Shown: piece after piece, positions 13,055 through 55,883 of the stretch
Position numbering within the stretch: position 1 is the first letter of the stretch
How the letters are laid out: every line of letters starts with the position of its first letter
Assembly: GCA_965197745.1 (NCBI GenBank)
Contig: CBDANS010000006.1
Span: 64,001 to 128,000 of the forward strand
Reading direction: 5' to 3'
DNA from: Opitutales bacterium
GTDB lineage: Bacteria; Verrucomicrobiota; Verrucomicrobiia; Opitutales; PNEW01
Length of the DNA stretch: 64,000 nucleotides
The notes under the pieces: generated by a model
Told to the model about the DNA's origin: nothing
What the model saw: only the letters and a program-made list of their open reading frames with translations
Database searches by the model: none
Position numbers and translations under genes: made by a program

Positions 13055-13101
13055 GATTTATCATCCTCTCTCCTTTTCGGATTTGATTACCTGTCTATGC
13101 C

Positions 13102-14868: not shown

Positions 14869-14971
14869 AACCTGAATATTCACTTTCAGTAAATCCATGC
14901 ACCGTCTGTGTTTTACCTGTTAATTATGCTGACATCGTTAATATTCACTCAGAACAATAACTTTGGATAAG

Positions 14972-15760: not shown

Positions 15761-15872
15761 TCTTTATTATAAATACCCGCATGAATTTCATGCCATTTAC
15801 AATGGCCGGGTGATGATTTTTGGGATTTTAGAATATCTGTCATCGCTGTCTTACCATAAAATACCGATTCGA

Positions 15873-16397: not shown

Positions 16398-16407
16398 TAA
16401 CTTTCTA

Positions 16408-18135: not shown

Positions 18136-18153
18136 ATTGTCTCCGCTGAGCGA

Positions 18154-19299
18154 TCAAAGGAGATCCAATGCGGTGTCCAGTTCTTCCCGCGTATTGAAAA
18201 AATGCGGTGAAAATCTCAGCCAGAATTTTTTATCGCGCGTCTGTCGTAATGAGACCGTAATCTTTGCCTCTGTGAATGTATCGTGCAGTGCTTTCAGATC
18301 GGTGTTCTCTTTGCGAAAGGATGTTATCCCGGAAAGTCGGCTGTCATCGGAACAAGCCAGAGTGTAGCCCTTGTTCTGCAAAACTTCACGCAGATGGCGC
18401 GTGTGCTTGAGTATTGTCTTTTCAACTTCCGGCAGCCCGTACTCTAATAACATTTTCATCGCGGCATGCATTCCGGCCAGCCCGGCGAGATTCGCGCTGC
18501 CGGCTTCATACCGTCTCGCGTCATTTTTAAAAGTTATCGTATCGGGGGTAACATAATTCGGGCAGATTACATTACTCCAGCCAAGGAGACTGGGCTCGAG
18601 AATTTTACGCGCTTCGGGGCTTACGTAAAAAATGCCTGCCGCGCAGGGTCCCAGCAGCCATTTATGAGCGTCAGCAGCAAAAAAATCCACATTCCTGATC
18701 GGTGTGCTTATGGCACCCAGGGTTTGAATGCCATCAATACTGAAGAGGACATCCCGTTCCTTTAACCAGGCTCCAATGGTGTCAGTATCTGGTTGATACC
18801 CACTGATAAAGTGGGCCGTGGAAAGGGCTACGAGTCGCGTGTTTTCATCAACCCTCGAGCAGATCGCTTCCAGGGTTATACGCCCGGGTTCTGAAGGGAA
18901 AAGAGGACGCAGTTCAATACCTCGTTTCTCCAGGTTCATCCAAACAACTGCGTTGGATGGGTAATCGTCAGGTGAAAAGACGATATTCTCTCCTCGCTTA
19001 AAATTCAGTCCGTTAGCGACGAGAGAAAGACTGATCGAAGTGGGCCCAATTAACGCGATATCGGTCGCGTCGCAATCCAGTATTTCTGCCGCAAGTCTGC
19101 GGATTTCACCAAATAAAGCAGGGGTGAAAATGAGTTCCTGGTCACCCTGGGTCGCCCGATTCACATAATCGCTCATCGCCTCAGCTACGCATTTGGGGAG
19201 GGGGCAAACCGCCGCATTGGCGAGAAATATCTCCTTATCAGCAACCGGGAATTGTTGGCGCCGAAACGCTTCGTTATTGTGAATCTCTTCGATTGTCAT
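18154..19299 (-). CDS. Class V aminotransferase (cysteine desulfurase / lyase-like)
   Basis: DGIQTLGA, ADAHKWLLGP, RYEAGS, RFSPHFFNT. Confidence 0.88.
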   Translation of the reverse strand: MTIEEIHNNEAFRRQQFPVADKEIFLANAAVCPLPKCVAEAMSDYVNRATQGDQELIFTPALFGEIRRLAAEILDCDATDIALIGPTSISLSLVANGLNFKRGENIVFSPDDYPSNAVVWMNLEKRGIELRPLFPSEPGRITLEAICSRVDENTRLVALSTAHFISGYQPDTDTIGAWLKERDVLFSIDGIQTLGAISTPIRNVDFFAADAHKWLLGPCAAGIFYVSPEARKILEPSLLGWSNVICPNYVTPDTITFKNDARRYEAGSANLAGLAGMHAAMKMLLEYGLPEVEKTILKHTRHLREVLQNKGYTLACSDDSRLSGITSFRKENTDLKALHDTFTEAKITVSLRQTRDKKFWLRFSPHFFNTREELDTALDLL

Positions 19300-19363
19300 A
19301 TTTTAATTTTATACAGGTAATCACAGGGGAATATTTTTTTAAATATTAAAAGGATCTCTAATT

Positions 19364-20551
19364 ATGGAATATAAACTGTTTCTTCTGAATAAGGAAAATG
19401 AACTATGGCAATATGAGATTGGTCGTGATGGCCACGCTCAGGTGGCAAGAAAATATACGGATGGAGACTTTCCCGGCATTTTCCCCATCGCGAGAATTAA
19501 AATGTCAAATGGGAATATTTTAAATGGCTACGATGCTCAAGGGCAAATGAAAGGACGACTACTGTTCGATCCCACAACTGACAGTTTAAAGACCTATAGC
19601 GGCGATCCGGAAAAAGCAATTGAGGGACTGCGTGTCCTCGAGACCCGACAGGCTGAAGACATGATCAAGAGCGATGCGGGATCTGATTATGAAGATTTTT
19701 TCGCCCTTGAAAATTCGGTATATGGTATTTCCGGTGATCATATTGACCAGCTATCCGCAAAATCAACTCCGGAAGATAACGTCTCTTCCCATAGGGTCCT
19801 GACTATTAAAGGGAGTCATCTCATCGCCGCAGCAGTCAGTCACTGGAAGGAAGCCTTTATCAGCGATACCTCGAATAATCGCATCCTTCGGGTAAAACAC
19901 AGTGATGATTCATTGCAATTTAATGGAGAAATTATTGAAGGCCGTTTGGATGCTCCTCGAGGATTAGTTTTCAGTCCTGATGGAGAGCTATTTGTTATTA
20001 ATTGTCGCGCAGATAATAATCAGATTATCCAATATGGTTTTAGATGTTATGAGCAAATTAACGTTAATGATTATACGCGAGAAGATGTCTGGGCTGTTGT
20101 ACCCGGTGCGGGATTTAACCTGGGCTCGGCAGAAGTAAGTGATCTTACCCTGGCGAAGCGGACAAGCATGGTATTTTCCGAAAAGATGAATCCACTAAAG
20201 AGAATGCAAGAGGCCAAAGCGGGGAAGGGCCACCACGGGGTCAGCGCTACAACTTATCTTAATTGTATTGAAACTCCGGACTATTTCGGTGAAAAAGCCA
20301 ACTCGGAAGCCGCCATAATCGGTCTCGTCGAATACGAACCGGGTGGACACACTGACGTCCACGTCCATGCGGATATGGAACAGGTATTTTATGTCTTAGA
20401 CGGCAAAGCTCTATTCGAAATGGGAGAAGTGGAAAAAGAGGCGGGGCCTGGCGATCTCGTTTTTTTTCCCCGTTTTGTAAAACATAGCTACAAGGTTATA
20501 GGTGATAAACCATTTAAATTCCTGATGCTGGAATGGCGAAATCTAAAATGA
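19364..20551 (+). CDS. Beta-propeller/NHL-like N-terminus fused to C-terminal cupin
   Basis: FISDTSNNRILRV and LDAPRGLVFSPDGELFV; cupin HVHADMEQVFYVLDG...PGDLVFFP..VKH. Confidence 0.7.
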   Translation: MEYKLFLLNKENELWQYEIGRDGHAQVARKYTDGDFPGIFPIARIKMSNGNILNGYDAQGQMKGRLLFDPTTDSLKTYSGDPEKAIEGLRVLETRQAEDMIKSDAGSDYEDFFALENSVYGISGDHIDQLSAKSTPEDNVSSHRVLTIKGSHLIAAAVSHWKEAFISDTSNNRILRVKHSDDSLQFNGEIIEGRLDAPRGLVFSPDGELFVINCRADNNQIIQYGFRCYEQINVNDYTREDVWAVVPGAGFNLGSAEVSDLTLAKRTSMVFSEKMNPLKRMQEAKAGKGHHGVSATTYLNCIETPDYFGEKANSEAAIIGLVEYEPGGHTDVHVHADMEQVFYVLDGKALFEMGEVEKEAGPGDLVFFPRFVKHSYKVIGDKPFKFLMLEWRNLK

Positions 20552-38879: not shown

Positions 38880-39184
38880 GGTAGACAGGGTAAAATGATC
38901 AGGGGACAATTCACAACTAATTACTTTCAATTTGAAACCGGTCACGGGATATCGCGACACCGGGTGAAACACGAAAGAGGAAATCCTCCATACAGTGACC
39001 TGTAACTTTCTGGATGAGATTGAGTGTTATTAAACTATTTCGTAATAATTATGGGTTGGTCTGACTCCTCCTCATTTAGAGGTGACAAGCCTCGGATTTC
39101 TCAGCTTTCTCATAGACGAAATCAGCTAATTCTGATTATACTTAAAAATATTCTGGTACTAAAACCCATTAAAACGGGTAAATC

Positions 39185-40033
39185 ATGCTCACCGATCATC
39201 AACTCACCCACTTCAATACATTCGGTTTCGTTCGCCTTCCGGGACTTTTCAGTCAGGAAGAAATAAAAAATTTTAACGATGAATTTCAGTTAAAGTTAGA
39301 ATCTACACTGCGCTTCACTTCAGACCGGGACGAACCCGCTAAATTCAGCAGCTGGTCTAACCTGGGAGCTGAGACGCCCCATTTATCAAGGTTGGTTGAA
39401 GATCCGAGGCTTTTGAATATTGCCAGGCAATTACTGGGTGAAGATTGTGTCTTAAGGTGCTGCAATTCCGGCAGTTACGTCAATGAAACTCCCTGGCATC
39501 CCGATAGCAGCATGTTTCATGAGCACACCGTTAAGTTTCCCATCTACCTGCAATCCCTCGACGAAACCAACGGGGCTTTACGCCTTATCCCCGGTTCGCA
39601 TAAGAAAGCTTTCCATGATGTAGTAACCCGATTCGGTCCGGGGGGAATTGATAATGATGAAGCGCGTAAAATTGATGAAATGAAAGAGACCCCCGCTCAT
39701 GTCTGTAAAACAGAACCCGGTGATGTCTATGCCTTTGAATGTCATATATGGCACGCTTCATGGGGGGGCGGCATGGACCGTCGGATGATTTCACCCATTT
39801 ATAGCAAGAATCCTAAAACCCCTGAAGAAGAAGAAGCGGTCCGGGAGCAAGTGAAATTAAATTTCGCGGTGCGAGAAGACTTAGCTAAAAATACTTATGC
39901 TGAACGCCAGCCGGAATATCCCCTTGAATGGTTGGCAAATCCTGAAAATAATCCACTGCGTCAACGCTGGATCGACTGGCTTCACAAGTGGAAATACATC
40001 GAATCCTTCCAGGACACACCAGCGAAAAATTAA
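39185..40033 (+). CDS. PhyH-family dioxygenase
   Basis: FNTFGF, WHPD, GALRLIPGSH, PGDV..F...WHAS. Confidence 0.88.
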   Translation: MLTDHQLTHFNTFGFVRLPGLFSQEEIKNFNDEFQLKLESTLRFTSDRDEPAKFSSWSNLGAETPHLSRLVEDPRLLNIARQLLGEDCVLRCCNSGSYVNETPWHPDSSMFHEHTVKFPIYLQSLDETNGALRLIPGSHKKAFHDVVTRFGPGGIDNDEARKIDEMKETPAHVCKTEPGDVYAFECHIWHASWGGGMDRRMISPIYSKNPKTPEEEEAVREQVKLNFAVREDLAKNTYAERQPEYPLEWLANPENNPLRQRWIDWLHKWKYIESFQDTPAKN

Positions 40034-40108
40034 ATTGCTCTCTCTCATGTTTTCGGTAGCTCATGTTGCCTTTAGTAGGAGCATTATCGGTATTCACCGT
40101 TCCCCGTT

Positions 40109-42004
40109 ATGAAATTAATTTACGCTCTGCTCATTCTCTCTTGTCCTCTCGTTTTCAACCATGCGCAGGAGCCGATCGACATCGGTTCGCGTTTAGAGTT
40201 GTTTGTCGATGATTATATCATCGACACGTTGTCCGGTGAAGCCCGGATAATTTTACACCAGCCCACTCCAAGGGAAGTAGCTATCGTCCACGATGAACCC
40301 TGGGAAGGCAACGCCAGCCATTATCACAGTGTTTTTCAGGATGGCGATCGCTATCGTTTGTACTACCTGGGAAACCAGTATACCACCACCGAAGGAAAGC
40401 TCACCTCACCACACCCGCTAATCTATTGTTACGCCGAAAGTGATGACGGTATTCACTGGCGTAAACCCGATCTGGGCCTCATTGAATTTAACGGGTCAAA
40501 GAAAAACAATATTATGTGGGCTAACAATCAGCCCGACCGTGAAGTGCAACCCGGTACAGCGGTAATTTTATCCATCAACGCAAGCGGCGACGATCTCAAA
40601 TACCAATGGTATATAGGCAAACCTGGTGACACTGCAAACCCCATTGCAGGAGCAACCGGCAGTACTTTGACTACCGGCGCTCTCACTGTGAGTACAAACT
40701 TTTGGGTCATGATAACAACGAAAGCAGGAGTAAGTGTTAACAGTGATACTTCGATTATCACCGTTGCGGCCCCTTCCGATCTTCAGGACCATGAAGCTTT
40801 GGGCGATGGGACCGGAGAAGACAGTCAGCATCTTGACGGAGCCGTATTTGGTCCGATTTTACTCAATATTGTCGATGCAGGACATTCCGCAGTGTTTAAA
40901 GATACAAATCCAGAAGCTCCTTCGGACGCGCGTTACAAAGCGATCCGCGTATCCGGTGATTTCAAAGGATTAATGGCTTTCAAATCAGCTGACGGCATTC
41001 ATTGGACGGCTATGAGTGACAAAAAGATCATTACTAAGAGTGATCTCTCAAAATTTGACAGTCCAGGAGTAGGTACTTTTTTTGATTCGCAAAACCTGGC
41101 CTTTTGGGATTCTACCTATGGATTTTACCGTCTCTACTTTCGCTACTGGCCGGATGGCCGCCGCGACATTATGACGATGACCTCGAAAGACTTTTTGAAC
41201 TGGGTCGATCCGGTTCCTCTCGAATACCCTGGCGCGCGACCCGAGCATCTTTACACCAACCAGATTAAACCTTACTACCGGGCCCCTCATATTCTCATCG
41301 GCTTTCCTACACGCTATATCGACCGCGGGTGGACGGATTCTACACGTGCACTGCCGGAATTTTACAAGCGTCGTCAACGAGCCGGTCCTGTTGTCGATAT
41401 CGCTGAGGATGAGCTTGAACCACGTTTCGGCAGCTCAGTCACCGAATCACTGTTCATGGCCAGCCGGGACGGAAAGACTTTCAAACGATGGAATGAAGCG
41501 TTTCTGCGACCGGGCATCGAGCGAAAGCACAGTTGGGCTTATGGCAATCAGTACATTGCCTGGCATCTGGTTGAAACTAAGTCGAGATTTGAAGACGCCC
41601 CAAACGATTTGTCGCTCTACGCCACTGAAGGTTATTGGACTGGCACCAGCAGTCAGCTCCGCCGCTATACCTTGCGCCTCGATGGATTTGTTTCTGTCAG
41701 TGCCTCACTTAGCGGCGGTGAACTGCTCACCAAGCCTCTTGTATTCGATGGGGAAGAGATGGTCATAAACTTTTCGAGCTCGGCAGCCGGTGGCGTCCAG
41801 GTCGAAATCCAGGAGGTATCAGGCCAGCCGATAGAAGGGTTTACCCTGGCGGATTGTTCCCCTGTATTCGGCGACTCAATCGAGCGCAGGGTAAACTGGT
41901 CGGGTGCTTCCAGTCTTGCCGGGCTGGCAGGGGAACCCGTCCGGCTGCGCTTTGTCTGTAAAGACGCGGACCTCTATTCCTTTCGCTTTCGTTCCACCCC
42001 GTAA
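40109..42004 (+). CDS. Secreted five-bladed beta-propeller glycoside-hydrolase-like protein with inserted Ig-like segment
   Basis: Signal peptide; ELFVDD, PWEG, YAESDDGIHW.KP, SADGIHW, FDSQN.AFWD, LRLDGFVS; insert at 40523-40864. Confidence 0.8.
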   Translation: MKLIYALLILSCPLVFNHAQEPIDIGSRLELFVDDYIIDTLSGEARIILHQPTPREVAIVHDEPWEGNASHYHSVFQDGDRYRLYYLGNQYTTTEGKLTSPHPLIYCYAESDDGIHWRKPDLGLIEFNGSKKNNIMWANNQPDREVQPGTAVILSINASGDDLKYQWYIGKPGDTANPIAGATGSTLTTGALTVSTNFWVMITTKAGVSVNSDTSIITVAAPSDLQDHEALGDGTGEDSQHLDGAVFGPILLNIVDAGHSAVFKDTNPEAPSDARYKAIRVSGDFKGLMAFKSADGIHWTAMSDKKIITKSDLSKFDSPGVGTFFDSQNLAFWDSTYGFYRLYFRYWPDGRRDIMTMTSKDFLNWVDPVPLEYPGARPEHLYTNQIKPYYRAPHILIGFPTRYIDRGWTDSTRALPEFYKRRQRAGPVVDIAEDELEPRFGSSVTESLFMASRDGKTFKRWNEAFLRPGIERKHSWAYGNQYIAWHLVETKSRFEDAPNDLSLYATEGYWTGTSSQLRRYTLRLDGFVSVSASLSGGELLTKPLVFDGEEMVINFSSSAAGGVQVEIQEVSGQPIEGFTLADCSPVFGDSIERRVNWSGASSLAGLAGEPVRLRFVCKDADLYSFRFRSTP

Positions 42005-42097
42005 TTTAATAAGTATTCAGCTTGTAATAGCATTATCTGATACTTAGAAAACTGGCCGCCATTGTAAGTAAACCATATGACCAATCAAAGGGGTAAA

Positions 42098-44341
42098 ATG
42101 TACTCAAGAAATATTGTTTCGGTTTTATTAATAACTCTGACAATTCCCGTATTTGTCTCAGCGCTTCCTCAAGACCTTGAAACTTTTTTCGATTTCGAAA
42201 ATGAATCAGCGACGGGGACGGAATTCACCCTGGGCGTAGCCCCGTTTACCATCCGGGTTATTGGGTTTACCCTGGAAACTGTTGATAACCCGGCCCTCGC
42301 TCATTCTGGAACCAAAGCTTTAGTCCTTGCAGCGGGTCAGGAAGGGAAAATTATTTTAGAAAGGGGCGCCAATTTACTCCAGTTTTATGCTGGTGAATCA
42401 TCCGGTGGCGGCCGTTTGGAACTCAGAGATAGAAGTGCTCTGGTTTTAAGTCCTGATGGGACAATTGATGGGCTGCCAGCTAACATCAGCCCGGGCGCTA
42501 ATCCCCCGCTTCAAAGTTTTGTCGCCTTCACTGGAGATATTAATGATCCAAACGACCTAAACTTTACGAGCGGTGTCATCGAAATAAAAATCATCAATGT
42601 AAATGAACGGGCGGTTATAGACGATCTTGGGTTCACCTACACGGTTGGTCCTCCCAACAATACCATTTTTGAAGATTTCAATAATGTAGGCACCCATTTA
42701 AAACCGGAATTTAATAGCCCTAATTCGAGGGTAAATTTCACTCTCGGAACCTCCCCTTACACCGCGACGTTTACCGGGGGCATTGCCTCCAATTCGGGCG
42801 GCGGTTTTTTTAATCATTCTATTCCCAGCGGTGGTTCTGACGTTGCAGGTGTCTGGAGAGTTGAAGATGCCTCTTTTTCAGGGGCGACGGGTGTCGGTAT
42901 TGTTACTTTCGAGACACCGGTCGCTAAATTAGAATTCTACGCTGCGGTCTTCCTCGAGGAAGATGGGGAAATTCAAATTTTCGATACTAATGATAACCTC
43001 CTCACATCAACCAAAGATTTACCGCTTAATATAAGTCACTTTTTTGAGTCACCCTTTACTTATTTATCTTTTAATGCCGCGGAGTTAGGGGCTCCTGAAG
43101 GAATTGGGAAAATGCATTATCTCAACTTGGAAGAAGTCTCTTTTCAAGGGAACGTGCTGCATAATGTCATTGATGATATTGGGTTTACTCCGGTCGGTGC
43201 TCCCGGTAGCGGTTCCGAGGGCCCCCCCCCGGTAGCCGGTCCCTCTATTACCACCCAGCCCGTGAGCCAGGAAGTGCAGTCGGGTTCAGCCATTGCCTTA
43301 TCGGTTGTCGCCAGCGGTGATGATCTTACCTACCAGTGGTATACCGGCAACAGCGGTGACACCGCCAGTCCCCTCGCCGGGGCTGCCGCCAGCACCTACA
43401 CCACCGGTGCGCTCACCGCGAGCACCAACTTCTGGGTGCAGGTAAGCAATGCCGGAGGTAGCACTGACAGCGATACCGCGGTCATCACCGTGACAGCGCC
43501 TTCCATTCCCCTCGTCCTTGACGGCTCGGGTGATATCGCCGGGGAAGACATTCAGCATGCCAACGGCAACGTCTTCGACCAGATTTTACTCACCGGAGAG
43601 TTCGTCCAACTCCAGGCCAAACCGGGACAGATCACCCGTGTTTCTTTCATGGACGAAAACGAGGACATTGTGCAGGTCGAGTTCTCAGGCAACGGGACCT
43701 TTACCGTAACCCTCGATCCGGCCACCTTTCTGCCCCCGGCCATACCTCCACGCTACAACCAAGCCGTCGAGTACGTGACGGGCAAACCCAGCGTGGTTAT
43801 CGACGGAGCTGATGCCAATACCTTCTTCAGCATCTTTACAGTGGGCAAGATCAACGCCTTTAACCAGGCACTGTTCCCCGAAGGACAGGTCTATGACGCC
43901 CAGGCCGATGTGGCCCTCGTGGAAGTAGTCAACTCCACGGGACTGGGAGGGGTGCAGCTATCGAATGCCGTGTTCAGTGGAAGCACGGGCAAGGTCGGCT
44001 TCGATGCGCGCGGCGTGCCGATCGCGGTACGCTTAACGGTGGGCGACATCGATGCCAACGGCGATGCGGTGCCGCACCTCCTGTTCGGAGACGGGTCCTT
44101 CACGGTAGCGGCGGGCAACCCCGGGATGCGTATTACCGGAGGAGACCTGATGCAGACGAACGGTGCCGCAGTCGTGGTCGCGGAGAGTGGTTCAACAACC
44201 CCCGGGTTCGAGACCCTGATCACCCAGAACAACTTCAAGTCTGACGAAACGCCTCAACCGACACTGAGCATCGATGCCACCTTCGCCAACGAGGACGGTG
44301 ACGAGATCACCGTGGATATTGATGAGATCACGATCGAGTGA
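42098..44341 (+). CDS. Secreted surface protein, array copy 1 (two variable modules + Ig + conserved C-terminal domain)
   Basis: Signal peptide ending VSA-LPQ; Pro/Gly linker; ITTQP...YQWY Ig-like domain; C-terminus shared with three paralogs; alternative start 42077. Confidence 0.85.
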   Translation: MYSRNIVSVLLITLTIPVFVSALPQDLETFFDFENESATGTEFTLGVAPFTIRVIGFTLETVDNPALAHSGTKALVLAAGQEGKIILERGANLLQFYAGESSGGGRLELRDRSALVLSPDGTIDGLPANISPGANPPLQSFVAFTGDINDPNDLNFTSGVIEIKIINVNERAVIDDLGFTYTVGPPNNTIFEDFNNVGTHLKPEFNSPNSRVNFTLGTSPYTATFTGGIASNSGGGFFNHSIPSGGSDVAGVWRVEDASFSGATGVGIVTFETPVAKLEFYAAVFLEEDGEIQIFDTNDNLLTSTKDLPLNISHFFESPFTYLSFNAAELGAPEGIGKMHYLNLEEVSFQGNVLHNVIDDIGFTPVGAPGSGSEGPPPVAGPSITTQPVSQEVQSGSAIALSVVASGDDLTYQWYTGNSGDTASPLAGAAASTYTTGALTASTNFWVQVSNAGGSTDSDTAVITVTAPSIPLVLDGSGDIAGEDIQHANGNVFDQILLTGEFVQLQAKPGQITRVSFMDENEDIVQVEFSGNGTFTVTLDPATFLPPAIPPRYNQAVEYVTGKPSVVIDGADANTFFSIFTVGKINAFNQALFPEGQVYDAQADVALVEVVNSTGLGGVQLSNAVFSGSTGKVGFDARGVPIAVRLTVGDIDANGDAVPHLLFGDGSFTVAAGNPGMRITGGDLMQTNGAAVVVAESGSTTPGFETLITQNNFKSDETPQPTLSIDATFANEDGDEITVDIDEITIE

Positions 44342-44365
44342 TTGGTGATCTATCGATCAGTGTTA

Positions 44366-44401
44366 GCCGCCGTCGTCCCGCGGGTGCGGGACTATGGCGT
44401 G
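44366..44401. repeat. 36-bp hairpin repeat GCCGCCGTCGTCCCGCG.GT.CGGGACTATGGCGTG (also 47154-47189, 52441-52476)
   Basis: Three near-identical copies with internal stem GTCCCG...CGGGAC. Confidence 0.85.
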
Positions 44402-44419
44402 ACATGAGTGTTAAGTTTT

Positions 44420-44502
44420 AGGTGGAACGCACTGTCCCTAGTGCGTTTAGAACTTTTATTATTGATAAACTACTAAGCGCGCTGGGACAGCCCGCTCCAC
44501 CT
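44420..44502. repeat. GGTGG-tagged REP-like inverted doublet (also 47201-47308, 52502-52579; single unit 52330-52381)
   Basis: AGGTGGA.CG...TGTCCC... paired with ...GCTGGGACAGCCCGCTCCACCT. Confidence 0.8.
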
Positions 44503-44580
44503 TTCATTGATAAATCAAGCAGCTATCGGTGACATCTTCCATTCAATGGAAATGACGATCACCCCTATTGGCCGACAGTA

Positions 44581-44740
44581 ACCGTTCACTGTTTATTGTT
44601 CACCGTCCCCTCTCCACTGTTCACTCTCCACTCCCCACTGTTCACTGTTTACTGTTCACTGTTCACTCTCCACTTTCCCCTCCCCACCGTTCACTGTTCA
44701 CTTTCCCCTCTCCCCCCTTCACTGTTCACTTTCCCCTCAC
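44581..44740. repeat. Degenerate 7-mer tandem repeat (CTGTTCA/CTCTCCA); shorter tract at 49881-49939
   Basis: Visible runs such as ctgttcactgtttactgttcactgttcactctcca. Confidence 0.85.
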
Positions 44741-44926
44741 TCAGTATCGGGATTATTTTAATAGTTGACGGAACATTTTTCCTGTTTTGGTATTCTAAAT
44801 ATCATACGGCCTGTGCTGATTTTAGACTAAAACCTCATCCAGGATAAAAGTCTATACACGCAATTAAATAAAAGTTGGCTAATGGAGCTCTAAATAAAAC
44901 ACGTTCCAAAATAATGGGGGGATCAA

Positions 44927-47136
44927 ATGTTCAAAAAAAAACTCGTTTCACTATCCTTAATTTCACTGATGTTACCTGTCATGCTCTCAGCTCTTCCTCA
45001 AGATCTGGAGGTATTCACAGATTTCGAGAACATCAGTGGTGAAGGGGAATTTTTCATTGGGGAGGACCCCAACAGGGTCAAGATAGTCGGATTCACGGTT
45101 GAAACGCTGGAAGATCCGGCACTCTTACACTCCGGAACAAAAGTGATAACTCTCGGGCCTGGTCAGGAGGGGGTAATTGTATCGGAAAGAGGACTTGATG
45201 AAATCCAATTCTATGCGGCTGAGAATACGGGAGCAGGTAAAATCGAGTACCGAGGAAACTCCATTCTAGCTGATGGAACTATAGGAATCGTTCTCGCCCT
45301 CAATGGCGTAATCGATGGTTTGCCCAATAATATCAGCCCCGGCGCAAATCCCCCCTTACAAGGCGGTATTGCAGATAGTGGTGTTTTTTTCGATAACGAC
45401 GACTTTGACTTTATCGATGGCATCAGAGAAATAAAGATCAAGGATGTTACAGGTAAATTATCCATCGACGATCTGGGCTTCACGCTTACGTCCAGACCGT
45501 CCAATAACACGGTTTATACTTATTTTGATGAATTCAGTGTAGGTGTTGGACAGTTCGAACCCATTGTTATTGGGACATCACCCTATACTGCTTCTTTTGA
45601 TGGTGGTATAATTATGTCCGGAGCATCAGAAAACCCCACTCATTCGGGAGAACTGTCCTATGGGATTCCAGTTAATGGCGATTCATTCGAAGTCGTCTTT
45701 GAAACCCCCGCTTATGAAATAGACACTTATGCAGGTGCACTTTTATTATCAAGCGCTTCAGAATCTGATGGCTCGATTGAAGTCTATGATACGGATGATA
45801 ACCTGATTGCTACTTTTACGGATTTTACGGCTTCTGGTGGTCTACGCTTTGAATTCAAACCCCCTTTTTAACGATCAATGCAGTTGAATTGGGAGCCCCG
45901 GGCGGTATCAGCAGACTGGTTGTTAAAGACAATCCAAATTTAAATGAAGCGAGAAGCCGGACAGTCATAGACACTTTTGGTTTTACCCCTATCGGTGCTC
46001 CCGGCAGTGGTGGTGAACCACCTCCGGCACAAGGCCCTTCCATTACCAACCAGCCCGCCAGCCAGGAAGTGCAGTCCGGCGCTTCGGCGAGTTTGTCTGT
46101 CGCTGCCAGCGGCGACGATCTCACTTACCAGTGGTATACCGGTAACAGCGGTGACACCGCAGCTCCCGTCGCCGGCGCCACCGGAAGCACGCTAACTACG
46201 GGTGCTCTCACCGCGAGCACGAACTTCTGGGCACAGGTAACCAACACCGGGGGTTCCGCTGACAGCGATACCGCGGTCATCACCGTGTCAGCACCTTCCG
46301 TGCCCCTCGTTCTTGACGGCTCGGGCGATATCGCCGGGGAAGACATTCAGCATGCCAACGGTAACGTCTTCGACCAGATATTACTCACCGGAGAGTCCGT
46401 CCAACTCCAGGCCAAACCGGGACAGATCACCCGCGTTTCCTTCATGGACGAAAACGAAGACATTGTACAGGTAGAGTTCTCAGGCAACGGGACCTTTACC
46501 GTAACCCTCGACCCGGCCACCTTCCTGCCCCCGGCCATTCCCCCACGCTACAACCAGCAAGTTGAGTACGTGACGGGCAAACCGAGCGTGGTCATCGACG
46601 GAGCCGACGCCAATACCTTCTTCAGCATTTTCACGGTGGGCAAGATCAACGCCTTTAACCAGGCACTGTTCCCCGAAGGACAGGTCTATGACGCCCAGGC
46701 CGACGTGGCCCTCGTGGAAGTAGTCAACTCCACGGGACTGGGAGGAGTCCAGCTGTCGAACGCTGTGTTTAGCGGAAGCACGGGCAAGGTCGGCTTTGAT
46801 GCGCGCGGTGTGCCGATCGCTGTACGCTTAACGGTGGGCGACATCGACGCCGATGGTGATGCGGTGCCACACATCCTGTTCGGAGAAGGGTCCTTCACGG
46901 TAGCGGCGGGCAACCCCGGGATGAGGATCACCGGTGGCGACCTCTTGCAGACGAACGGTGCTGCAATCGTCGTCGCTGAGAGTGGTTCAACAACGACCGG
47001 GTTTGAGACCCTGATCACCCAGAACAACTTCAAGTCCGACGAAACACCTCAGCCGACACAGAGTATCGATGCCACTTTCGCCAACGAGGACGGTGACGAG
47101 ATTACCGTGGCTATTGATGAGATCACGATCGAGTGA
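44927..47136 (+). pseudogene. Surface protein array copy 2, frameshifted
   Basis: AAACCCCC-T5-AACG at 45857-45873 versus T6 in copy 3; ORFs 44927..45871 and 45889..47136 join into a full paralog if one T is added. Confidence 0.85.
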
Positions 47137-47559
47137 TCTATCGATCAGTGTTAGCCGCCGTCGTCCCGCGGGTGCGGGACTATGGCGTGCCATGGGTGTT
47201 AGGTGGAACGCGGTGCCTGTGTCGGCCATAGCTTCAGCGACGGCTGATCCCTACCGCGTTTAAGTTCAGTTATAAAAAAGAAGCGTGCTGGGACAGCCCG
47301 CTCCACCTAAAATAATTTAAGGAGATAGACGAGGACGACGATTTAATGTTTATATTATAGTTAAATATAAACTATAAAGCAGCCCAGGGACCACCCTGGT
47401 TCACTATTATTGGACGAAAGTACCTGTTCACGGTTCACTAATCCCAAAAGGAGCTAAGAATTGTTAAATATCACTTGAATTGTGTTCATTAGACAATTAA
47501 TTAATAGTTAACTAATGGAGCTCTAAATAAAACACGTTCCAAAATAATGGGGGGATCAA

Positions 47560-49785
47560 ATGTTCAAAAAAAAACTCGTTTCACTATCCTTAATTTCACT
47601 GATGTTACCTGTCATGCTCTCAGCTCTTCCTCAAGATCTGGAGGTATTCACAGATTTCGAGAACATCAGTGGAGAAGGTGATTTTTACATTGGGGAATTT
47701 CCAGATAGAATCAGGTTAATTGGATTCACGGTTGAAACGCTGGAAGATCCAGCGCTCTTGCATTCCGGATCAAAGGCGATAACCCTCGGGCCGGGTCAGG
47801 AGGGGATAATTGTATCGGAAAGAGGACTTGATGAAATCCAATTTTATGCGGGCGAGAATACGGGAGCAGGCAAGATCGAGTATCGAGGAAATTACGAAGT
47901 AGCATCAGGTTCGGGTTTTGGGACCTCTATAGGACTCATTCTCGCCGACAATGGCGTAGTCGATGGTCTGCCTAATAATATCAGCCCCGGCGCAAATCCC
48001 CCCTTACAGGGTGGTATTTCAGACAGTGGTGTTTTCTTCGATAACGACGACTTTGACTTTATCGATGGCATCAGAGAAATAAAGATCAAGGATGTTACAG
48101 GTAAATTATCCATCGACGATTTAGGGTTCACTACAACGTCCAGACCGTCCAATAACACGGTCTATACTTATTTTGATGAATTCAGTGTAGGGACAGGACA
48201 GTTCGAACCCATTGTTATTGGGACATCACCCTATACAGCTACTTTGGAAGGCGGTATTATTATGTCCAGAGCGGCAGAAAACCCGGCTCATTCGGGAGAG
48301 CTGTCCTTTGGGCTTCAGGTAAATGGCGAATCATTCGAAATTGTCTTTGAAACCCCCGCTTATGAAATAGACACTTACGCAGGCGCGCTTTTATTATCGA
48401 GCGCATCAGAATCTGATGGCTCGATTGAAGTCTATGATACGGGTGATAACCTGATTGCTACTTTTACGGATTTCACAGCTTCTGGTGGCCTGAACTTTAC
48501 TCTCAAACCCCCTTTTTTAACGATCAATGCAGTTGAATTGGGAGCCCCGGGCGGTATCAGCAGACTGGTTGTTAAAGACAATCCTAATTTAAATGAAGCG
48601 AGAAGCCGGACAGTCATAGACACTTTTGGTTTTACCCCTGTCGGTGCGCCCGGCAGTGGTGGTGAACCACCTCCGGCACAAGGTCCATCCATAACTACCC
48701 AGCCCGCCAGCCAGGAAGTGCAGTCCGGCGCTTCGGCGAGTTTGTCTGTCGCTGCCAGCGGCGACGATCTCACTTACCAGTGGTATACCGGTAACAGCGG
48801 TGACACCGCAGCTCCCGTCGCCGGCGCCACCGGAAGCACGCTAACTACGGGTGCTCTCACCGCGAGCACGAACTTCTGGGCACAGGTAACCAACACCGGG
48901 GGTTCCGCTGACAGCGATACCGCGGTCATCACCGTGTCAGCACCTTCCGTGCCCCTCGTTCTTGACGGCTCGGGCGATATCGCCGGGGAAGACATTCAGC
49001 ATGCCAACGGTAACGTCTTCGACCAGATTTTACTCACCGGAGAGTTCGTCCAACTCCAGGCCAAACCGGGACAGATCACCCGCGTTTCCTTCATGGACGA
49101 AAACGAAGACATTGTACAGGTAGAGTTCTCAGGTAACGGTACCTTTACCGTATCCCTCGACCCGGCCACTTTCCTGCCCCCGGCCGTCCCCCCACGCTAC
49201 AACCAGGCCGTCGAATATGTGACGGGTAAGCCGAGCGTGGTCATCGACGGAGCCGACGCCAATACCTTCTTCAGCATTTTCACGGTGGGCAGGATCAACG
49301 CCTTTAACCAGGCGCTGTTCCCCGAAGGACAGGTCTATGACGCCCAGGCCGACGTGGCCCTCGTGGAAGTAGTCAACTCCACAGGATTGGGAGGGGTACA
49401 GTTATCGAATACCGTGTTCAGTGGAAGCACGGGCAAGGTCGGCTTCGATGCGCGTGGAGTACCGATCGCTGTACGCTTAACGGTGGGCGACATCGACGCC
49501 GATGGTGATGCGGTGCCACACATCCTGTTCGGAGAAGGGTCCTTCACGGTAGCGGCGGGCAACCCCGGGATGAGGATCACCGGTGGCGACCTCTTGCAGA
49601 CGAACGGTGCTGCAATCGTCGTCGCTGAGAGTGGTTCAACAACGACCGGGTTTGAGACCCTGATCACCCAGAACAACTTCAAGTCCGACGAAACACCTCA
49701 GCCGACACAGAGTATCGATGCCACTTTCGCCAACGAGGACGGTGACGAGATTACCGTGGCTATTGATGAGATCACGATCGAGTGA
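47560..49785 (+). CDS. Secreted surface protein, array copy 3
   Basis: Intact close paralog of copy 2 with identical signal peptide. Confidence 0.88.
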   Translation: MFKKKLVSLSLISLMLPVMLSALPQDLEVFTDFENISGEGDFYIGEFPDRIRLIGFTVETLEDPALLHSGSKAITLGPGQEGIIVSERGLDEIQFYAGENTGAGKIEYRGNYEVASGSGFGTSIGLILADNGVVDGLPNNISPGANPPLQGGISDSGVFFDNDDFDFIDGIREIKIKDVTGKLSIDDLGFTTTSRPSNNTVYTYFDEFSVGTGQFEPIVIGTSPYTATLEGGIIMSRAAENPAHSGELSFGLQVNGESFEIVFETPAYEIDTYAGALLLSSASESDGSIEVYDTGDNLIATFTDFTASGGLNFTLKPPFLTINAVELGAPGGISRLVVKDNPNLNEARSRTVIDTFGFTPVGAPGSGGEPPPAQGPSITTQPASQEVQSGASASLSVAASGDDLTYQWYTGNSGDTAAPVAGATGSTLTTGALTASTNFWAQVTNTGGSADSDTAVITVSAPSVPLVLDGSGDIAGEDIQHANGNVFDQILLTGEFVQLQAKPGQITRVSFMDENEDIVQVEFSGNGTFTVSLDPATFLPPAVPPRYNQAVEYVTGKPSVVIDGADANTFFSIFTVGRINAFNQALFPEGQVYDAQADVALVEVVNSTGLGGVQLSNTVFSGSTGKVGFDARGVPIAVRLTVGDIDADGDAVPHILFGEGSFTVAAGNPGMRITGGDLLQTNGAAIVVAESGSTTTGFETLITQNNFKSDETPQPTQSIDATFANEDGDEITVAIDEITIE

Positions 49786-50050
49786 TCTATCGATCAGTGT
49801 TAGGTTCTAAGTTTTAAGTGTTAAGCAATTAGGTGGACCTCGTGGGTGCCTGTCAGCCGTTGGGCTATGACTGACAGGCACCGTTCACTTTCCCTCCACT
49901 TTTCACTGTTCACTGCTCACTGTTCACTTCCCCCTCTCCCTATATAGGGATTATATTAAGAGTTGACGGAACATATTCGCTGATTTGGTATTCTAAATAT
50001 TAGGCAACCCACGCAGATAATTGAGTAAAACCCCTATAGGATAATAGTCT

Positions 50051-52285
50051 ATGCACGCATTTAAATCACGATTTATCATAATTCTACTCGTATCTTTTCC
50101 GCTTATCCTTCAGGCCATACCTGAAAATCTCGACACTTTTTACGATTTTGAAGAAGCTGATGGTAAAGGGACAATATTTCTCGGTCAACCACCCAATAGT
50201 ATAACGTTAGTTGGTTTCACCCTCCAGTCCGTAGGGAATCCCGCGCTCTATCACTCAGGGTCAAAGGCCATAATGTTGGGGGCAGGACAGGAAGGGACCA
50301 TCATCTTTGAAAGAGGTGTTCAAACACTCCAATTCTATGCAGCTGACACTGGTGGTGGTGGTAGAATCGAACTGAGAGACAGAAATAAGATCGAGTTATC
50401 TCCACAAGGTGTTGTCGAGGGTTTGCCAACCAATATCAGTCCCGGGGCGAATCCGCCGTTGCAAAGTTTCGTCGCTTTCAGCGGGGATATAAATGATTTG
50501 TCAGATCTGAATTTTACGGGCGGGATCAGGGAAATCAAAATTGTGAATGTGTCCGGGCAATTTTCTCTCGACGATCTCGGTTTCTCCTATGTGGTTGGAC
50601 CTCCCAATAATTTCGTCTTCGAGGACTTTCAGGTATTTACACAAAATCCCGTATTCGCTAACCGGGTAAACTTTGATTTAGGGCAATCACCCTTCTCCGC
50701 CAACTTTTCCGGTGGCATTGCCTCGGGCAATGGTGGTTTTAATGCATTTAATCACACTTTACCCGACTTAGCGGGTACTCAAGACCAGGATCCTTATGGG
50801 GCATGGAGAGTAGAGGATATATCTTTTGGGGGGTCTGGTTTAGGTGTTATTACTTTTGAGACACCGGCCGCCAAGGTGGAATTCTATGCCGCTGTCTTTA
50901 TTGAAGGAGACGGTGAAATACAGGTTTTTGACACCAACGATAAGCTGCTCACCTCGACAACGAATATCCCACTGAGTATCAGTCATGAATATCTCATCCC
51001 CTTCACATTTTTTTCATTTATTGCTGCAGATTTAGGCGCTCCCGAAGGGATTGGAAAAATTAACTACACCAATGGTCCAGCGACTACGACACAAGGAAAT
51101 GTTCTTCATAATGTCATTGACGACTTTGGCTTTACTTCGGTCGGTGCTCCCGGTAGCGGCGGCGAACCGCCCCCGATAACCGGTCCCTCTATTACCACCC
51201 AGCCCGCGAGCCAGGAAGTGCAGTCGGGTTCGGCTATTGCTTTATCGGTTGTCGCCAGCGGTGATGATCTTACTTACCAGTGGTACACCGGCAACAGCGG
51301 TGACACCACCAGTCCCCTCGCCGGGGCCACCGGCAGCACCTACACCACCGGTGCGCTCACTGCGAATACCAACTTCTGGGTGCAGGTAAGCAATGCCGGA
51401 GGTAGCACTGACAGCGACACCGCCGTCATCACCGTAACCGCCCCCCCGGTGCCACTCGTCCTCGACGGTTCGGGTGATATCGCCGGTGAGGATATCCAGC
51501 ATCCCAATGGGAATGTCTTCGACCAGATCCTCTTAACCGGAGAGTTTGTCCAACTCCAGGCCAAACCGGGACAGATCACCCGCGTTTCCTTCATGGACGA
51601 AACTGAGGACATTGTACAGGTAGAGTTCTCCGGTTCAGGGACCTTTACCGTTACCCTCGACCCGACGACCTTCCTGCCCCCGGCCATTCCCCCGCGCTAC
51701 AACCAGGCAGTAGAGTACGTGACAGGCAAGCCGAGCGTGGTCATCGAAGGAGCGGACGCCAACACCTTCTTCAGCATCTTCACGGTGGGCAAGATCAACG
51801 CCGTGAACCAGGCCCTCTTCCCCGAAGGACAGGAATATGACGCCGAAGCCGACGTCGCCCTGGTGGAAGTGATCAACTCCACGGGAATAGGTGGGATGCA
51901 GTTGTCGAATACTATCTTTTCGGCAAGTACGGGAAAGACTGGCGTGGACGCCCGCGGAGTGCCCATAGCGGTACGCTTAACGGTAGGCGACATCGATGCC
52001 GATGGTGATGCGGTTCCGCATATACTCTTTGCGGATGGATCCTTCACGGTGCCGGCGGGCAACCCCGGAATGCGTATCACCGGAGGTGATTTAGCCCAGA
52101 CCAATGATGCCGCGGTAGTTATCGCCGAGAGTGGATCGACGATCCCCGGGTTTGAGACCTTGATCACTCAGAACAATTTCAAGTCCGACATCACGCCTCA
52201 ACCGACGCAGAGCATTAATGCCACATTCGCCAACGAGGACGGTGACGAGATTACCGTGGCTATTGAAGAGATCACGATCGAGTGA
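50051..52285 (+). CDS. Secreted surface protein, array copy 4
   Basis: N-terminus and Ig domain closest to copy 1; most diverged C-terminal domain. Confidence 0.88.
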   Translation: MHAFKSRFIIILLVSFPLILQAIPENLDTFYDFEEADGKGTIFLGQPPNSITLVGFTLQSVGNPALYHSGSKAIMLGAGQEGTIIFERGVQTLQFYAADTGGGGRIELRDRNKIELSPQGVVEGLPTNISPGANPPLQSFVAFSGDINDLSDLNFTGGIREIKIVNVSGQFSLDDLGFSYVVGPPNNFVFEDFQVFTQNPVFANRVNFDLGQSPFSANFSGGIASGNGGFNAFNHTLPDLAGTQDQDPYGAWRVEDISFGGSGLGVITFETPAAKVEFYAAVFIEGDGEIQVFDTNDKLLTSTTNIPLSISHEYLIPFTFFSFIAADLGAPEGIGKINYTNGPATTTQGNVLHNVIDDFGFTSVGAPGSGGEPPPITGPSITTQPASQEVQSGSAIALSVVASGDDLTYQWYTGNSGDTTSPLAGATGSTYTTGALTANTNFWVQVSNAGGSTDSDTAVITVTAPPVPLVLDGSGDIAGEDIQHPNGNVFDQILLTGEFVQLQAKPGQITRVSFMDETEDIVQVEFSGSGTFTVTLDPTTFLPPAIPPRYNQAVEYVTGKPSVVIEGADANTFFSIFTVGKINAVNQALFPEGQEYDAEADVALVEVINSTGIGGMQLSNTIFSASTGKTGVDARGVPIAVRLTVGDIDADGDAVPHILFADGSFTVPAGNPGMRITGGDLAQTNDAAVVIAESGSTIPGFETLITQNNFKSDITPQPTQSINATFANEDGDEITVAIEEITIE

Positions 52286-52582
52286 TTGGTGATCTATCGA
52301 TCAGTGTTAGGTATTAAGTTTTAAGTTTTAGGTGGAGCGGGACCTGAGACGAGCTCAGTCGAATCGTGTCCCAGCACGCTTCTTTTCTTCTTATAACAAT
52401 CTAAACGAGCTTCAAGCAGCTGTCGGTGAGATCAGTGTTAGCCGCCGTCGTCCCGCGAGTACGGGACTATGGCGTGCCATGGGTGTTAAGTTTTAAGTGT
52501 TAGGTGGAGCGGGCTGTCCCAGCACGCTTCTTTTCTTCTTTTAATAATCTTAACGCGCTGGCAGGTACCCCGCCCCACCATA

Positions 52583-52957
52583 TTGTCATTGCGAGGGAGG
52601 CTATCAGCTGACCGCGGCTACCGAGCGCAGCGACATCTTCCAATCCAGGGGAAGGTCTGTTGCGTGATGAAAGTCCCTTGATGTTAGAGTTTACATTCCG
52701 TCGAGCAATTGTCGATTTTCAATCAGCTTCCCTTTAGCGGCTAGCATTAAGCTACCGACATTCCCCTTGAATGTGAGATGTCCAACCTTCTTACATCGGA
52801 TATCGTAACTCGTAAATCGTATATCGATGCTATTGATATCCGGTATGTGATATCCGAGGTTAGATATTCGAAATATTGAGCTTACTTCAAACATCATATA
52901 TCGTATATCGATGCTGACGAGACCGAAGTCTATGCTCGACATCTTCCATTCCAGGGA
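52583..52957. repeat. Partial TGTCATTGCGA element with decayed internal repeats
   Basis: 52583-52690 aligns by eye with the left part of 59727-59971; CGACATCTTCCATTCCAGGG recurs at 52937. Confidence 0.7.
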
Positions 52958-53066
52958 AATACCCGGGCATGTATTGACAGCCTCCTGGATGGGTTGATAT
53001 CGTGTCGCGATTGCGCACGGAGTGCGCCCGTCCAGAAATATTCGGCAATATTAAATTGTATCAATC

Positions 53067-55883
53067 ATGACCTATAATAAAAAATGGCATCTTGTTCAAA
53101 TTTCACTTAGCGCGCTAGTAGCGATGTTCCTGATTGGCAGTCCCCTATACTCCATGGGCAAAAAGGAGAAAGAAGCCGAAGCCATGGAAGGGCAAGCGGT
53201 TTGGATCCACAACGGATTTGAGGATTTTTCAAAAGGACAATTCGATAATGCGGGGAGCAATCTTTATGTGAATGCCAACGGTGTTATTGAGATGATTAAT
53301 AACCTCGATGTAAATAGTGACGGTTATGTAGACCTCGTCCTGGCAAATTCACACGATAGAATTGAACGCGGTCCCACCTGGGCGTATTCAACCGGTCAGG
53401 GGCCGGGTGAAAATTGGAAGCGACACGAGATGTCCGCGGATAGCGGATGGATGAGCCGGGTCATCGATGTGGATGGTGACGGACACAACGACCTGGTGAC
53501 CGTGAACTCTCAGAACGGAGTCTCTTCGGAATTGGACTCATACATTTATTGGGGAGGTCCTGAGGGACTGGAAGCGAGCAGAACGGACCTCCCGACGATT
53601 GGAGCTTTCGATGTCGCGCCACTTGATATTAACAGCGATGGAAAACTCGACTTACTCTTCCCCTCCGCGTGGGTAGACGGACACAATCCGGCAATACCAC
53701 GATTAGCTCACGTCTATATTCAAGGAGAAGACCGAGCATTTAAAGATGAGGGAAAGCGCTATGGAATGATCGCGACAGGGGCCTTAGGCATCGCGACCGG
53801 GGATTTGAACAACGATGAGTATGCGGATATTGTTTTGGCCAGTTACCGTGTAGGTCAAAGTAATTTAAATACGGAGTCTTTAATTTTCTGGGGAACAGAG
53901 GAGGGAGTTAATGCCTACGATCCTTTCACTTTACCTACTTACGGAGCACGCCAGGTTATACTTGAGGACCTGAACCAGGACGGGAGCAACGACCTGATGT
54001 TCTGCGGTAGCGCTCAAGTTCGCGTCTATTGGAATAAAGGAGGAAACATTGATAGTGAGAACCCCGTCATTATTGAGGGGAAAGGTCAATCTGCAGAATT
54101 CAGCAGTAGCGTTATTCGCGCTGATATTGCCGATGTAGATGCTAATGGCTTTCCGGACCTGCTTATTGCCACCTCAGATGGCGTGCAGATCCGCTCGGGA
54201 GATAACATGGAGGAGATGAAAACATTGATTGAAGTAAAAAACTCTCGGTGGGTAACGGCCGCTGATCTCGATGGGGATAGTTTACCTGAACTGATCATCA
54301 GTAAGCACTCTGACGGGAATGAATACGATATCCAGTCACCTGTCTACTGGAATGGACCGGACGGGTATTCTGACGATCGAACGAGTTGGGTGCAAACGAT
54401 AGGGGTCATAGGTAACACCGCCGGGGACCTGGATGGAGACGGGAAGCCGGAAGTGATCTTCAATAACGTCATCGACGGGCATGTGAGTAGCATACCCTCT
54501 TATGTGTATCTCGGTAACGAAAAGGCAGATTACAATGAGGATAATCGACTCGAATTTCAAACTGTACATAGCATGATAGCTCTCGTTGCCGATTTGAATA
54601 GCGATGGGTATCCCGAAGTTGTTTTTACCACTCCGGATGGATTTCGCATATTCAGCGGTGGAGCGAAAGGACCGTTATAGAATGAATATAGCGATTTTAA
54701 TAATGATTTTGAATTAGGTGAACTGCAGGCAGTCGATTTTAATCGGGATGGCTATCTTGATATTCTTGCGGTTGCCTTTGGTTCCAGTCTTGGTGAGAAT
54801 GACAGCGATAATACTTCTTCCCTATTTTATGGTTCACCCAGCGGATTTTCCATGGAGAGAACCGATTCAGATTCACTATACAATAGAGGGGACCGGGGTG
54901 TCGTCGGTGATGTCAATAACGATGGCTATATTGATATCGTATTTCACGATAAACGGAACTTCATACGCATTTATCTCGGAAACGCTGAAGGGTTTTCCCA
55001 GGACCGGAAATGGGAAATACCCTGTCACGGCCTGGAAGATTCAGCAGCTTTAAATATGGCAGATATTAACAGTGACGGATGGCTGGATATAATTGTCGGC
55101 ATCCTTGGCCACCGCAGACGTCATAAAGACACATTGCGTATTCATTATGGAAGTCCGGAAGGCTATCAGGATGATAACATTCAGGAATTGTTGTCTGGAT
55201 ACAGCGCAATATTTACAGGAGTCGCGGACTACAATAACGACGGCAACCTCGATATCCTGGTCACCGCCTATGCTGACCCGACTTCGAGAACACCGCCGGC
55301 ACAGTTGTTTTACGGGGACGGTAAAAGGATTGATTTTGACCATCCTGTCAATCTTCCCGGTTATGCCGCCGGCGCGGTGACCCAGGCAGATTTGAATCGT
55401 GACGGATGGATAGATATCGCCCTGGCCTGTCATCGCAACGATATTGGACACCAGGTCGATTCATTGATTTACTGGAATAGCCCCGACGGGTTTGACAGGA
55501 ATGAAGTATCCCGTTTCCCCGGTCTCGGCCCCCACGGGATGACAGGTTTCGATCGGGGAAATGCATTCACCCGGAAGCCTGAAGAGAACTATGTATCCCC
55601 ACCCTATGCGTTGGGGGATCGAAAAGCGCGCCGCATCCATTGGGACAGTAAAGAGACAGAACTTCTGAAAATAAAATTCCAGCTTCGATGGAGCGAATCG
55701 GAAGCAGGTCTTGATGATGCTGCCTGGATGGGCCCGACCGGGACCGCGTCTTATTATGAAACCTCCAGTGAAACGATTGAGGGAATACCGAATGACGCCC
55801 GGTGGTTGCAATACAAAGCAACACTTATTTCAACTTATGGGTGTGGTTCACCTAAACTGAATGAAGTTCGGATCGACCTCTGA
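53067..55883 (+). pseudogene. Secreted FG-GAP/VCBS repeat protein interrupted by one in-frame TAG (54678-54680)
   Basis: Many D.N.DG..D repeats; the frame stays open after the TAG and runs into ORF 54852..55883. Confidence 0.8.

Follow-up and report, generated by a model that had tools for sequence, protein, structure and literature searches.

Many protein structures contain a domain nested within another, yet the donor of the inserted piece and the event at the DNA level can rarely be traced. In GH3 beta-glucosidases, for instance, a PA14 domain, a beta domain of carbohydrate-binding type, is inserted in a loop of the catalytic module and is thought to shape substrate access. In Clostridium perfringens, the GH33 sialidases NanI and NanJ have a beta-sheet domain inserted in the propeller, which NanH lacks (PMC11525138). 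Here we describe a nested domain in a hydrolase-like gene of an Opitutales bacterium, found in a stretch of 64,000 nucleotides (GenBank assembly GCA_965197745.1, contig CBDANS010000006.1, positions 64,001 to 128,000 of the forward strand; hereafter the window, with positions counted from its first letter). This gene (40109..42004, + strand) holds, within its reading frame, a segment with an immunoglobulin-like (Ig-like) domain that also occurs in a neighbouring array of four gene copies, and the data probably reflect one ancient nested insertion from the array family, which has since been inherited and kept.

The host gene is an open reading frame (ORF) of 631 aa with a secreted-looking product. 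Nucleotides 40523-40864 (+) translate, in frame inside this ORF, to 114 residues that an earlier note on the window had quoted as a piece of the array captured by the hydrolase. This insert-containing stretch is flanked by ...GSKKNNIMWA on the left and by VDAGHSAVFKDTNP... on the right. BLASTP of the host against the protein of the adjacent array gene (42077-44341) aligned host residues 141-252 with array residues 394-505 at 67/113 identities (59%, E 1e-32), and tblastn returned the identical span, 40529-40864, confirming that a homologous array-type Ig segment lies in frame inside the hydrolase. The segment is as quoted, except that its first two residues (NN, 40523-40528) belong to the host when compared with insert-less relatives, which places the foreign piece at approximately residues 141-254. 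It consists of an Ig-like domain (40529..40771, +; residues 141-221), a tail that overshoots this domain (40772..40864, +; residues 222-252; collinear with array residues 475-505), and the junction residues N253 and I254 (40865..40870, +), which are without a counterpart in the array or in the insert-less sisters, as judged from the alignment and from the junction of L002, an insert-less locus discussed below. The Pfam family Ig_7 (PF19081) matches host residues 145-214 with 28.0 bits against a cut-off of 27.3, as well as every array copy; another carrier of the insert, P0009, stays under this cut-off with 20.6 bits. At the junctions, the sisters read WAD(N/S)K(S/I)-VDAGH and the carriers WA(N/D)N-[insert]-N(I/A/T)-VDAGH, the right end of the carriers being ...ILLN(A/I/T)-VDAGH. 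The cluster representative of the window protein, P0005, is listed as 100% identical overall; a local BLAST restricted to the 114 residues of the insert gave 98.2%.

We aligned the best 120 homologs of the host protein, minus P0005, P0023 and P0043 and plus the window protein, which gave 118 rows. The segment was present in 14 of these; the other 104 members, which are 470-547 residues long, have a loop of 5-10 residues at the site, in agreement with the expectation that homologs would lack the segment. It is thus a true in-frame nested insertion. Thirteen further protein clusters (formed at 90% identity and drawn from several sources) have the insert at this very position, as do four genes of two more Opitutales-type assemblies that were read at the DNA level, namely Verrucomicrobia bacterium Opi.OSU.00C (L001, L004) and the Opitutales metagenome-assembled genome OY829953.1 (L003, L006). 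The DNA-level view of the other carriers therefore covers two genomes, and statements on the co-occurrence of carriers, sisters and arrays within a genome are based on L001-L006.

An AlphaFold2 (AF2) model of the host, computed from the 118-row alignment, had a mean predicted local distance difference test (pLDDT) score of 85.3 and a predicted template modelling (pTM) score of 0.81, with most host parts above a pLDDT of 85. The top Foldseek matches of this model were glycoside hydrolase (GH) chains of the GH43, GH32 and GH130 families (E 4.9e-9 to 5e-7; ~10% identity); owing to the extra domains, TM-scores were low (0.15-0.38, with a highest value of 0.60 for a GH130 chain). The host is therefore predicted to be a five-bladed beta-propeller with a C-terminal beta-sandwich of the GH43/GH32/GH130 type. 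This assignment relates to the fold, and sequence models did not place the protein in any of the three families: Pfam and NCBIfam scans found no family outside the insert in the window host protein and none in P0002 or P0017, and a single-sequence search of the PDB with the host gave nothing significant. The sole PDB match of the family profile was a GH130 phosphorylase chain (E 4e-4, 59 residues), the distant homolog P0023 barely passed Glyco_hydro_32N (22.7 bits against a cut-off of 22.1), and one host homolog carries the NCBI name GH43 protein. In the model, the insert sits between the strands at residues 135-138 and 255-264, and directly downstream of it lies a nearly invariant D-x-x-H motif (D256/H259 in the host). 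The Ig part (residues 141-220) is predicted to form seven beta-strands (pLDDT 67-88, averaged over blocks of 10 residues); in the tail, residues 226-246 and 249-252 fall below 50. The insertion is thus predicted to lie between secondary-structure elements and to leave the host fold intact, which speaks, at the level of a model, for the propeller-loop position that had been suggested for it.

The host family is large, with 6895 homologs at E <= 0.001 among 8000 candidates scored, and tandem paralogs are common. The long tblastn matches at L005, L009, L018 and L034, considered at first as additional cases of the insertion, represent such paralogs, and in L003 the carrier gene is followed by five tandem ORFs of 533-544 aa (11946-20270). 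The last of these (18663-20270) has weak similarity to the hydrolase (28-32%), and the cluster looks like a group of distant paralogs.

The inserted segment does not stop at the end of the Ig-like domain. Its last 31 residues align without gaps to the linker of the array proteins and to the first ~23 residues of their strongly conserved C-terminal region, in which invariant columns start at G483 of P0003. A hidden Markov model (HMM) of the array linker and the start of the C-terminal region scored the window tail at 9.9 bits, and seven of the 14 carrier tails, that of the window included, exceeded the maximum of 2800 shuffles (7.6 bits); three others (P0006, P0011 and P0014) were under the 99th percentile of the shuffles. 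The array residues that are kept in the tail differ from carrier to carrier, as expected of common descent from an array-like sequence. Since the C-terminal region is unfolded in the AF2 model of the array protein (10-residue block means of pLDDT of 22-50), the boundary that is overshot is defined by sequence conservation and not by structure. On this basis, the match reaches past the Ig domain into array-specific sequence, as the earlier note had claimed.

We also searched the databases with the insert alone, covering proteins of 347-1105 aa. This search returned 101 proteins, of which 12 were hydrolase clusters (60-68% identity; 98% for the window's own cluster) and 89 were array-type proteins. 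The latter are 53-65% identical to the insert and collinear with it over 81-100%, with at least 98% in 79 of the 89. Among the 88 array-type proteins from outside the window, 87 contain the array C-terminal region and none contains hydrolase parts. Since the segment is missing from the large majority of the aligned hydrolases and is present in all of the array proteins, the direction of transfer was probably from array to hydrolase.

Phylogenetic analysis indicated that the carriers share one insertion. In a host tree computed after removal of the insert columns (25 rows, 511 columns), the 14 carriers formed one clade (support 99/97) with the window protein as its first branch. The insert-less P0017 and the pair P0019 and P0021 were nearest to the carriers, with which they form an unresolved three-way fork, and P0022 came next. 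A tree of 106 Ig segments (14 inserts and 92 array segments; P0005 was dropped as a near-copy of the window protein) likewise united the 14 inserts in one clade, with a support of 100 in the Shimodaira-Hasegawa-like approximate likelihood ratio test (SH-aLRT) and with the window insert basal (96), the 92 array segments lying across a branch of 0.42 changes per site. In this tree the four array copies of the window were scattered among arrays of other genomes, and none was near the insert. The insert and host trees are congruent. These findings show that the insert has a single origin, is old and was inherited together with the host gene.

The insert has also remained under constraint. The five carrier genes that were translated from DNA (window, L001, L003, L004 and L006) have no stops and no frameshifts, and across their 10 pairs the ratio of nonsynonymous to synonymous substitution rates (dN/dS) was 0.09-0.37 in the Ig part and 0.39-1.22 in the tail; the corresponding values were 0.07-0.22 in the N part of the host and 0.15-0.19 in its full-length C part. 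The Ig part is therefore under purifying selection, and the last ~10 residues of the tail are conserved in 14/14 carriers. In the comparison with the array copies, which the earlier note had suggested, dS is saturated. As a separate observation, insert dS among the carriers L001, L003, L004 and L006 (0.18-0.76) is mostly below N-part dS (0.53-2.3), and the carriers P0013 and P0016 switch partners between trees of the N part and the C part, which hints at recombination or conversion among carrier paralogs.

The genomic setting of the carriers varies. There was no array gene within up to 10 kb on each side of the carriers at L001, L003 and L006, and none at L004, which ends inside the hydrolase gene. 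The carrier genome OY829953.1 does hold arrays, at a locus other than those of its carriers: at L002, two array genes and then an FG-GAP gene lie downstream of an insert-less gene that is of the P0019/P0021 type, and the window locus is syntenic with this arrangement. As far as seen, then, the segment has not turned up in genomes free of the array, the finding that the earlier note had named as fatal to its proposal. As the array-adjacent position is common to the window carrier and the insert-less sister at L002, the adjacency predates the insertion or is at least not tied to it. This fits a neighbouring array gene as the donor, and it could also be expected of a mosaic of paralogs. At L002, the signal-peptide region of the insert-less hydrolase (~9990-10080) is in another frame than the gene body, reflecting either a frameshift or an assembly indel.

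The proximity of insert and array could suggest a recent and private capture from one of the four present copies, and the earlier note had indeed pictured an event of this locus beside its donor, with a DNA word shared at the right junction. That word, the 11-mer GATTTTACTCA, is common to the right end of the insert and to array copies 1 and 3; since other exact runs exist as well, a 16-mer inside the Ig part being the longest, it is no junction signature in itself. The insert is more diverged from the four copies (63.4-67.0% DNA identity) than these are from one another (77.5-99.1%), and its dN against them is 0.26-0.29 and its dS 1.49-1.61, a saturated value (rounded, at least 1.5 for every copy, with the value for copy 4 undefined), so that the insertion is older than the divergence of the copies, as had been proposed. 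The GC content at third codon positions (GC3) is 0.447 in the insert; the Ig segment of the array has 0.719 and the flanking host sequence ~0.53, so that GC3 has shifted from 0.72 to 0.45. We considered recent gene conversion from the array into the window insert as a reason for its basal and array-like appearance, and rejected it: in the stretch around GATGSTLTTGALT, 19/20 residues are identical to copy 3, yet most synonymous sites differ. The present four array copies are not the donors. With the insert shared at the same site by the 13 other clusters and the four genes of other genomes, and with congruent insert and host trees, a private capture at this locus is extremely unlikely. An assembly chimera or misjoin of the hydrolase and an array gene has nothing in its favour beyond the adjacency of similar sequence, and its probability is negligible: the same junctions recur in the 13 independent protein clusters and at the four loci of the two other assemblies, and an insert this far from the local copies in DNA identity is no misassembled version of them. 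The donor might also have been another Ig_7-type repeat protein, such as a giant multi-Ig protein: an index-free search of 1.84 billion representatives found 5022 with this Ig type at E <= 0.001, mostly giant and many with tandem copies. The inserted segment is accordingly an autonomous domain known in other architectures. These non-array domains, however, are 28-46% identical to the insert and match its Ig part only, ending at about insert residue 90; one match that seemed longer had no real similarity in the tail, and proteins above 1105 aa gave four weak matches with at most 47% identity and 70% coverage. Both the higher identity and the match through the tail are seen in array proteins only, which makes another donor very unlikely; the array family is the sole identified relative that shares the tail.

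Several observations nevertheless weigh against a single insertion that simply passed down with the gene. The Ig tree, which is unrooted between inserts and arrays, has the two on opposite sides of one branch and does not itself display the inserts as nested inside array diversity. In OY829953.1 the gene at the array-adjacent L002 is insert-less and the carriers are elsewhere (L003, L006), whereas the window has a carrier in this position. The window protein falls inside the carriers in the N-part tree (96), but in the tree of the C part it groups weakly with the insert-less sisters (SH-aLRT 80, on a branch of 0.016), outside a 99-supported clade of the other 13. Diagnostic sites show the same trend, with carrier-like to sister-like counts of 12:0 in the N part and 21:14 in the C part (Fisher p 0.009, a post hoc test), and of 3:0 and 2:10, respectively, in a strict set. 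Furthermore, the three closest insert-less sisters have a shorter loop than the rest of the family, which the deletion of an older insert could also produce. One explanation of this pattern is that the window gene was once insert-less like that at L002 and received its 5' part together with the insert from an insert-bearing paralog by conversion or recombination, so that the adjacency of insert and array would be secondary. In addition to the synteny with L002 and the conflict between trees, such a mosaic would account for the top C-part identity of the window protein to the insert-less P0017 (84% overall, 88% for residues 401-520), and other carriers switch partners between the N and C trees as well. 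We nevertheless regard it as unlikely, although it carries some weight, because monophyly of the 14 carriers in the C part is compatible with the approximately unbiased (AU) test (not rejected; delta log-likelihood 1.28, p 0.387), the carrier-like and sister-like sites are interleaved in the C part without a clean breakpoint, and many of the sister-like states equal the outgroup state and are thus shared ancestral characters. Moreover, the window insert is basal to the other 13 and not nested among them, so the paralog that donated it would have to be an unsampled basal lineage. The insert might also be older than the carrier clade and have been deleted in its insert-less sisters, that is, in the lineage of P0017 and in that of P0019, P0021 and L002. 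The unresolved fork between these lineages and the carriers leaves room for such a loss, and the loop of the sisters, WAD(S/N)K(I/S)-VDAGH, is devoid of the residues of the G-P-L type that occur there in more distant insert-less members. However, this account needs not just a gain but also one or two exact deletions that preserved the frame, where a gain would otherwise suffice, and in the N-part tree the carriers are set apart (96), with the AU test rejecting a grouping of the window with the sisters (p 0.0015). The next outgroup, P0022, is also without the insert, and we consider this loss improbable.

We therefore favor a single ancient insertion from the array family, which probably proceeded as follows. 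In the ancestor of a small Opitutales-type gene clade, ~336 nt of an array-family gene, encoding the Ig-like domain, the following linker and ~23 residues from the start of the conserved C-terminal region, would have been placed in frame into a short propeller loop between two beta-strands, upstream of the D-x-x-H motif. The donor was probably a neighbouring array gene of that time. Afterwards, the insert passed down together with the host gene, reached other loci by duplication and took on a codon usage like that of the host, and purifying selection preserved it; the window holds the earliest-branching carrier, still beside an array. The simplest reconciliation of synteny and gene tree is an old duplication followed by differential loss. 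Anatomy and constraint suggest that the Ig domain may now act as a projecting binding or spacer module; candidate roles include the binding of a glycan or a partner close to where the active-site funnel opens, and the variable tail would form a flexible linker leading back into the host.

A more specific possibility is that the insert is a docking module through which the hydrolase could plug into a partner or assembly that is used by the array proteins. This idea arises because the array Ig domain is kept along with the first and most conserved strand of the C-terminal region, and because the last ~10 residues are invariably retained and the linker is variable. A complex prediction for insert residues 139-256 and array residues 476-754 gave a score of 0.00, which counts neither for nor against binding. 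We consider docking quite improbable; if it did take place, the enzyme would stand beside variable binding heads resembling carbohydrate-binding modules (CBMs), in a small, lineage-specific and cellulosome-like arrangement built from a copied attachment piece.

The neighbouring array comprises four copies on the same (+) strand as the host gene. Copy 1 (42077..44341; 754 aa) has a signal peptide, two putative CBM-like beta-sandwiches, Ig_7 and the conserved C-terminal region, as judged from AF2 and Foldseek, and its donor-equivalent segment is located at 43256-43591 (+; tblastn and BLASTP). Copies 3 (47560..49785; 741 aa) and 4 (50051..52285; 744 aa) are single ORFs, and copy 2 (44927..47136) is split into two ORFs, 44927-45871 and 45889-47136, with a change of frame near 45853-45871. 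As copy 2 is 92.9% identical to copy 3 in DNA over its full length and 99.1% in the Ig segment, it is a tandem duplicate of recent origin, whose frameshift marks it as a pseudogene or stems from an error in the assembly. The tandem beta-sandwiches at the N terminus are confidently predicted and resemble CBM-type modules in Foldseek with low TM-scores, so their CBM-like nature is a lead only. In an alignment of 65 array proteins, the C-terminal ~250 aa (in the window, for example, 43592-44338) show extreme conservation, many columns being invariant; no Pfam family matched this region and an Atlas look-up gave only unnamed clusters. The array family, which is multi-copy and secreted, thus ends in an uncharacterised domain.

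Some further features of this region are worth recording. The Ig segment of array copy 1 has a GC3 of 0.72, compared with 0.555-0.568 in the whole array genes (copies 1, 3 and 4) and a window GC of 0.47, and this high value could possibly result from GC-biased conversion among the copies or from selection on codons. A promoter and terminator scan of 38900-53200 found terminator-like sites to be no commoner than in shuffles, and none in the gap at 42005-42076 between the hydrolase and the array. Downstream of the array lies the FG-GAP repeat region identified by Pfam (53067..55883, +), which serves as the synteny anchor with L002 and is 85-87% identical at the aa level to its counterpart there (17050-19872). 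It forms two ORFs in the window (53067-54680, 537 aa; 54852-55883, 343 aa) and a single ORF of 940 aa in L002.

A literature search, judged from titles and the beginnings of abstracts, found no paper on this hydrolase family or on the insertion, and yielded the sialidase case as the sole analogue. The locus involves no new kind of mechanism: the domain shuffling is real and conserved, but it is old and shared among carriers. It stands out solely in that the donor, the scar and the time course are all legible. The scar is the stretch of the adjoining donor region that was carried along, and it shows that the piece moved as DNA and not as a neat domain. With thousands of insert-free host relatives available for comparison, and a carrier clade small enough to date the event, the locus offers a natural case in which to ask how a foreign domain in a loop is tolerated by a propeller enzyme and then put to use. 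Attention is also drawn to an uncharacterised pair of families in Opitutales-type bacteria, of which one is large, GH-like and unclassified and the other is secreted and multi-copy, with variable heads that are CBM-like; the two are probably linked in polysaccharide use.

Of the resources that touch on the components, the Pfam entry Ig_7 ('Ig-like domain CHU_C associated') describes the domain shared by insert and array, and says nothing on nesting or on the array C-terminal region, and the GH43, GH32 and GH130 propellers resemble the predicted host fold at an identity to solved structures of ~10%. A second nested domain, in other branches of the same hydrolase family, provides a further comparison. 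The genes at L045 (10001-12148), L051 (10001-12160) and L054 (10001-12157) have an extra ~240 aa, in which Pfam recognizes a Laminin_G_3 (ConA-like) domain in L045 and L051, likewise an in-frame nested beta-sandwich in a continuous ORF. We considered these genes as further insertions at the same site and rejected this, since the domain is located at host residues ~546-550, in the C-terminal sandwich, as opposed to 140/255, and the lineages are Verrucomicrobiales and Lentisphaerae. With Laminin_G_3, the family thus has a second nested insertion of independent origin. The PA14 domain of the GH3 enzymes differs from the insert described here in both fold and family. With NanI and NanJ the insert has in common that a small all-beta domain is nested in a propeller glycosidase, in some members only, with the host fold unchanged (PMC11525138). 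The sialidases, however, are six-bladed GH33 propellers, whereas the present host is predicted to be five-bladed and GH43/32/130-like; their domain is placed away from the catalytic site, and no donor family is named for it (PMC11525138).

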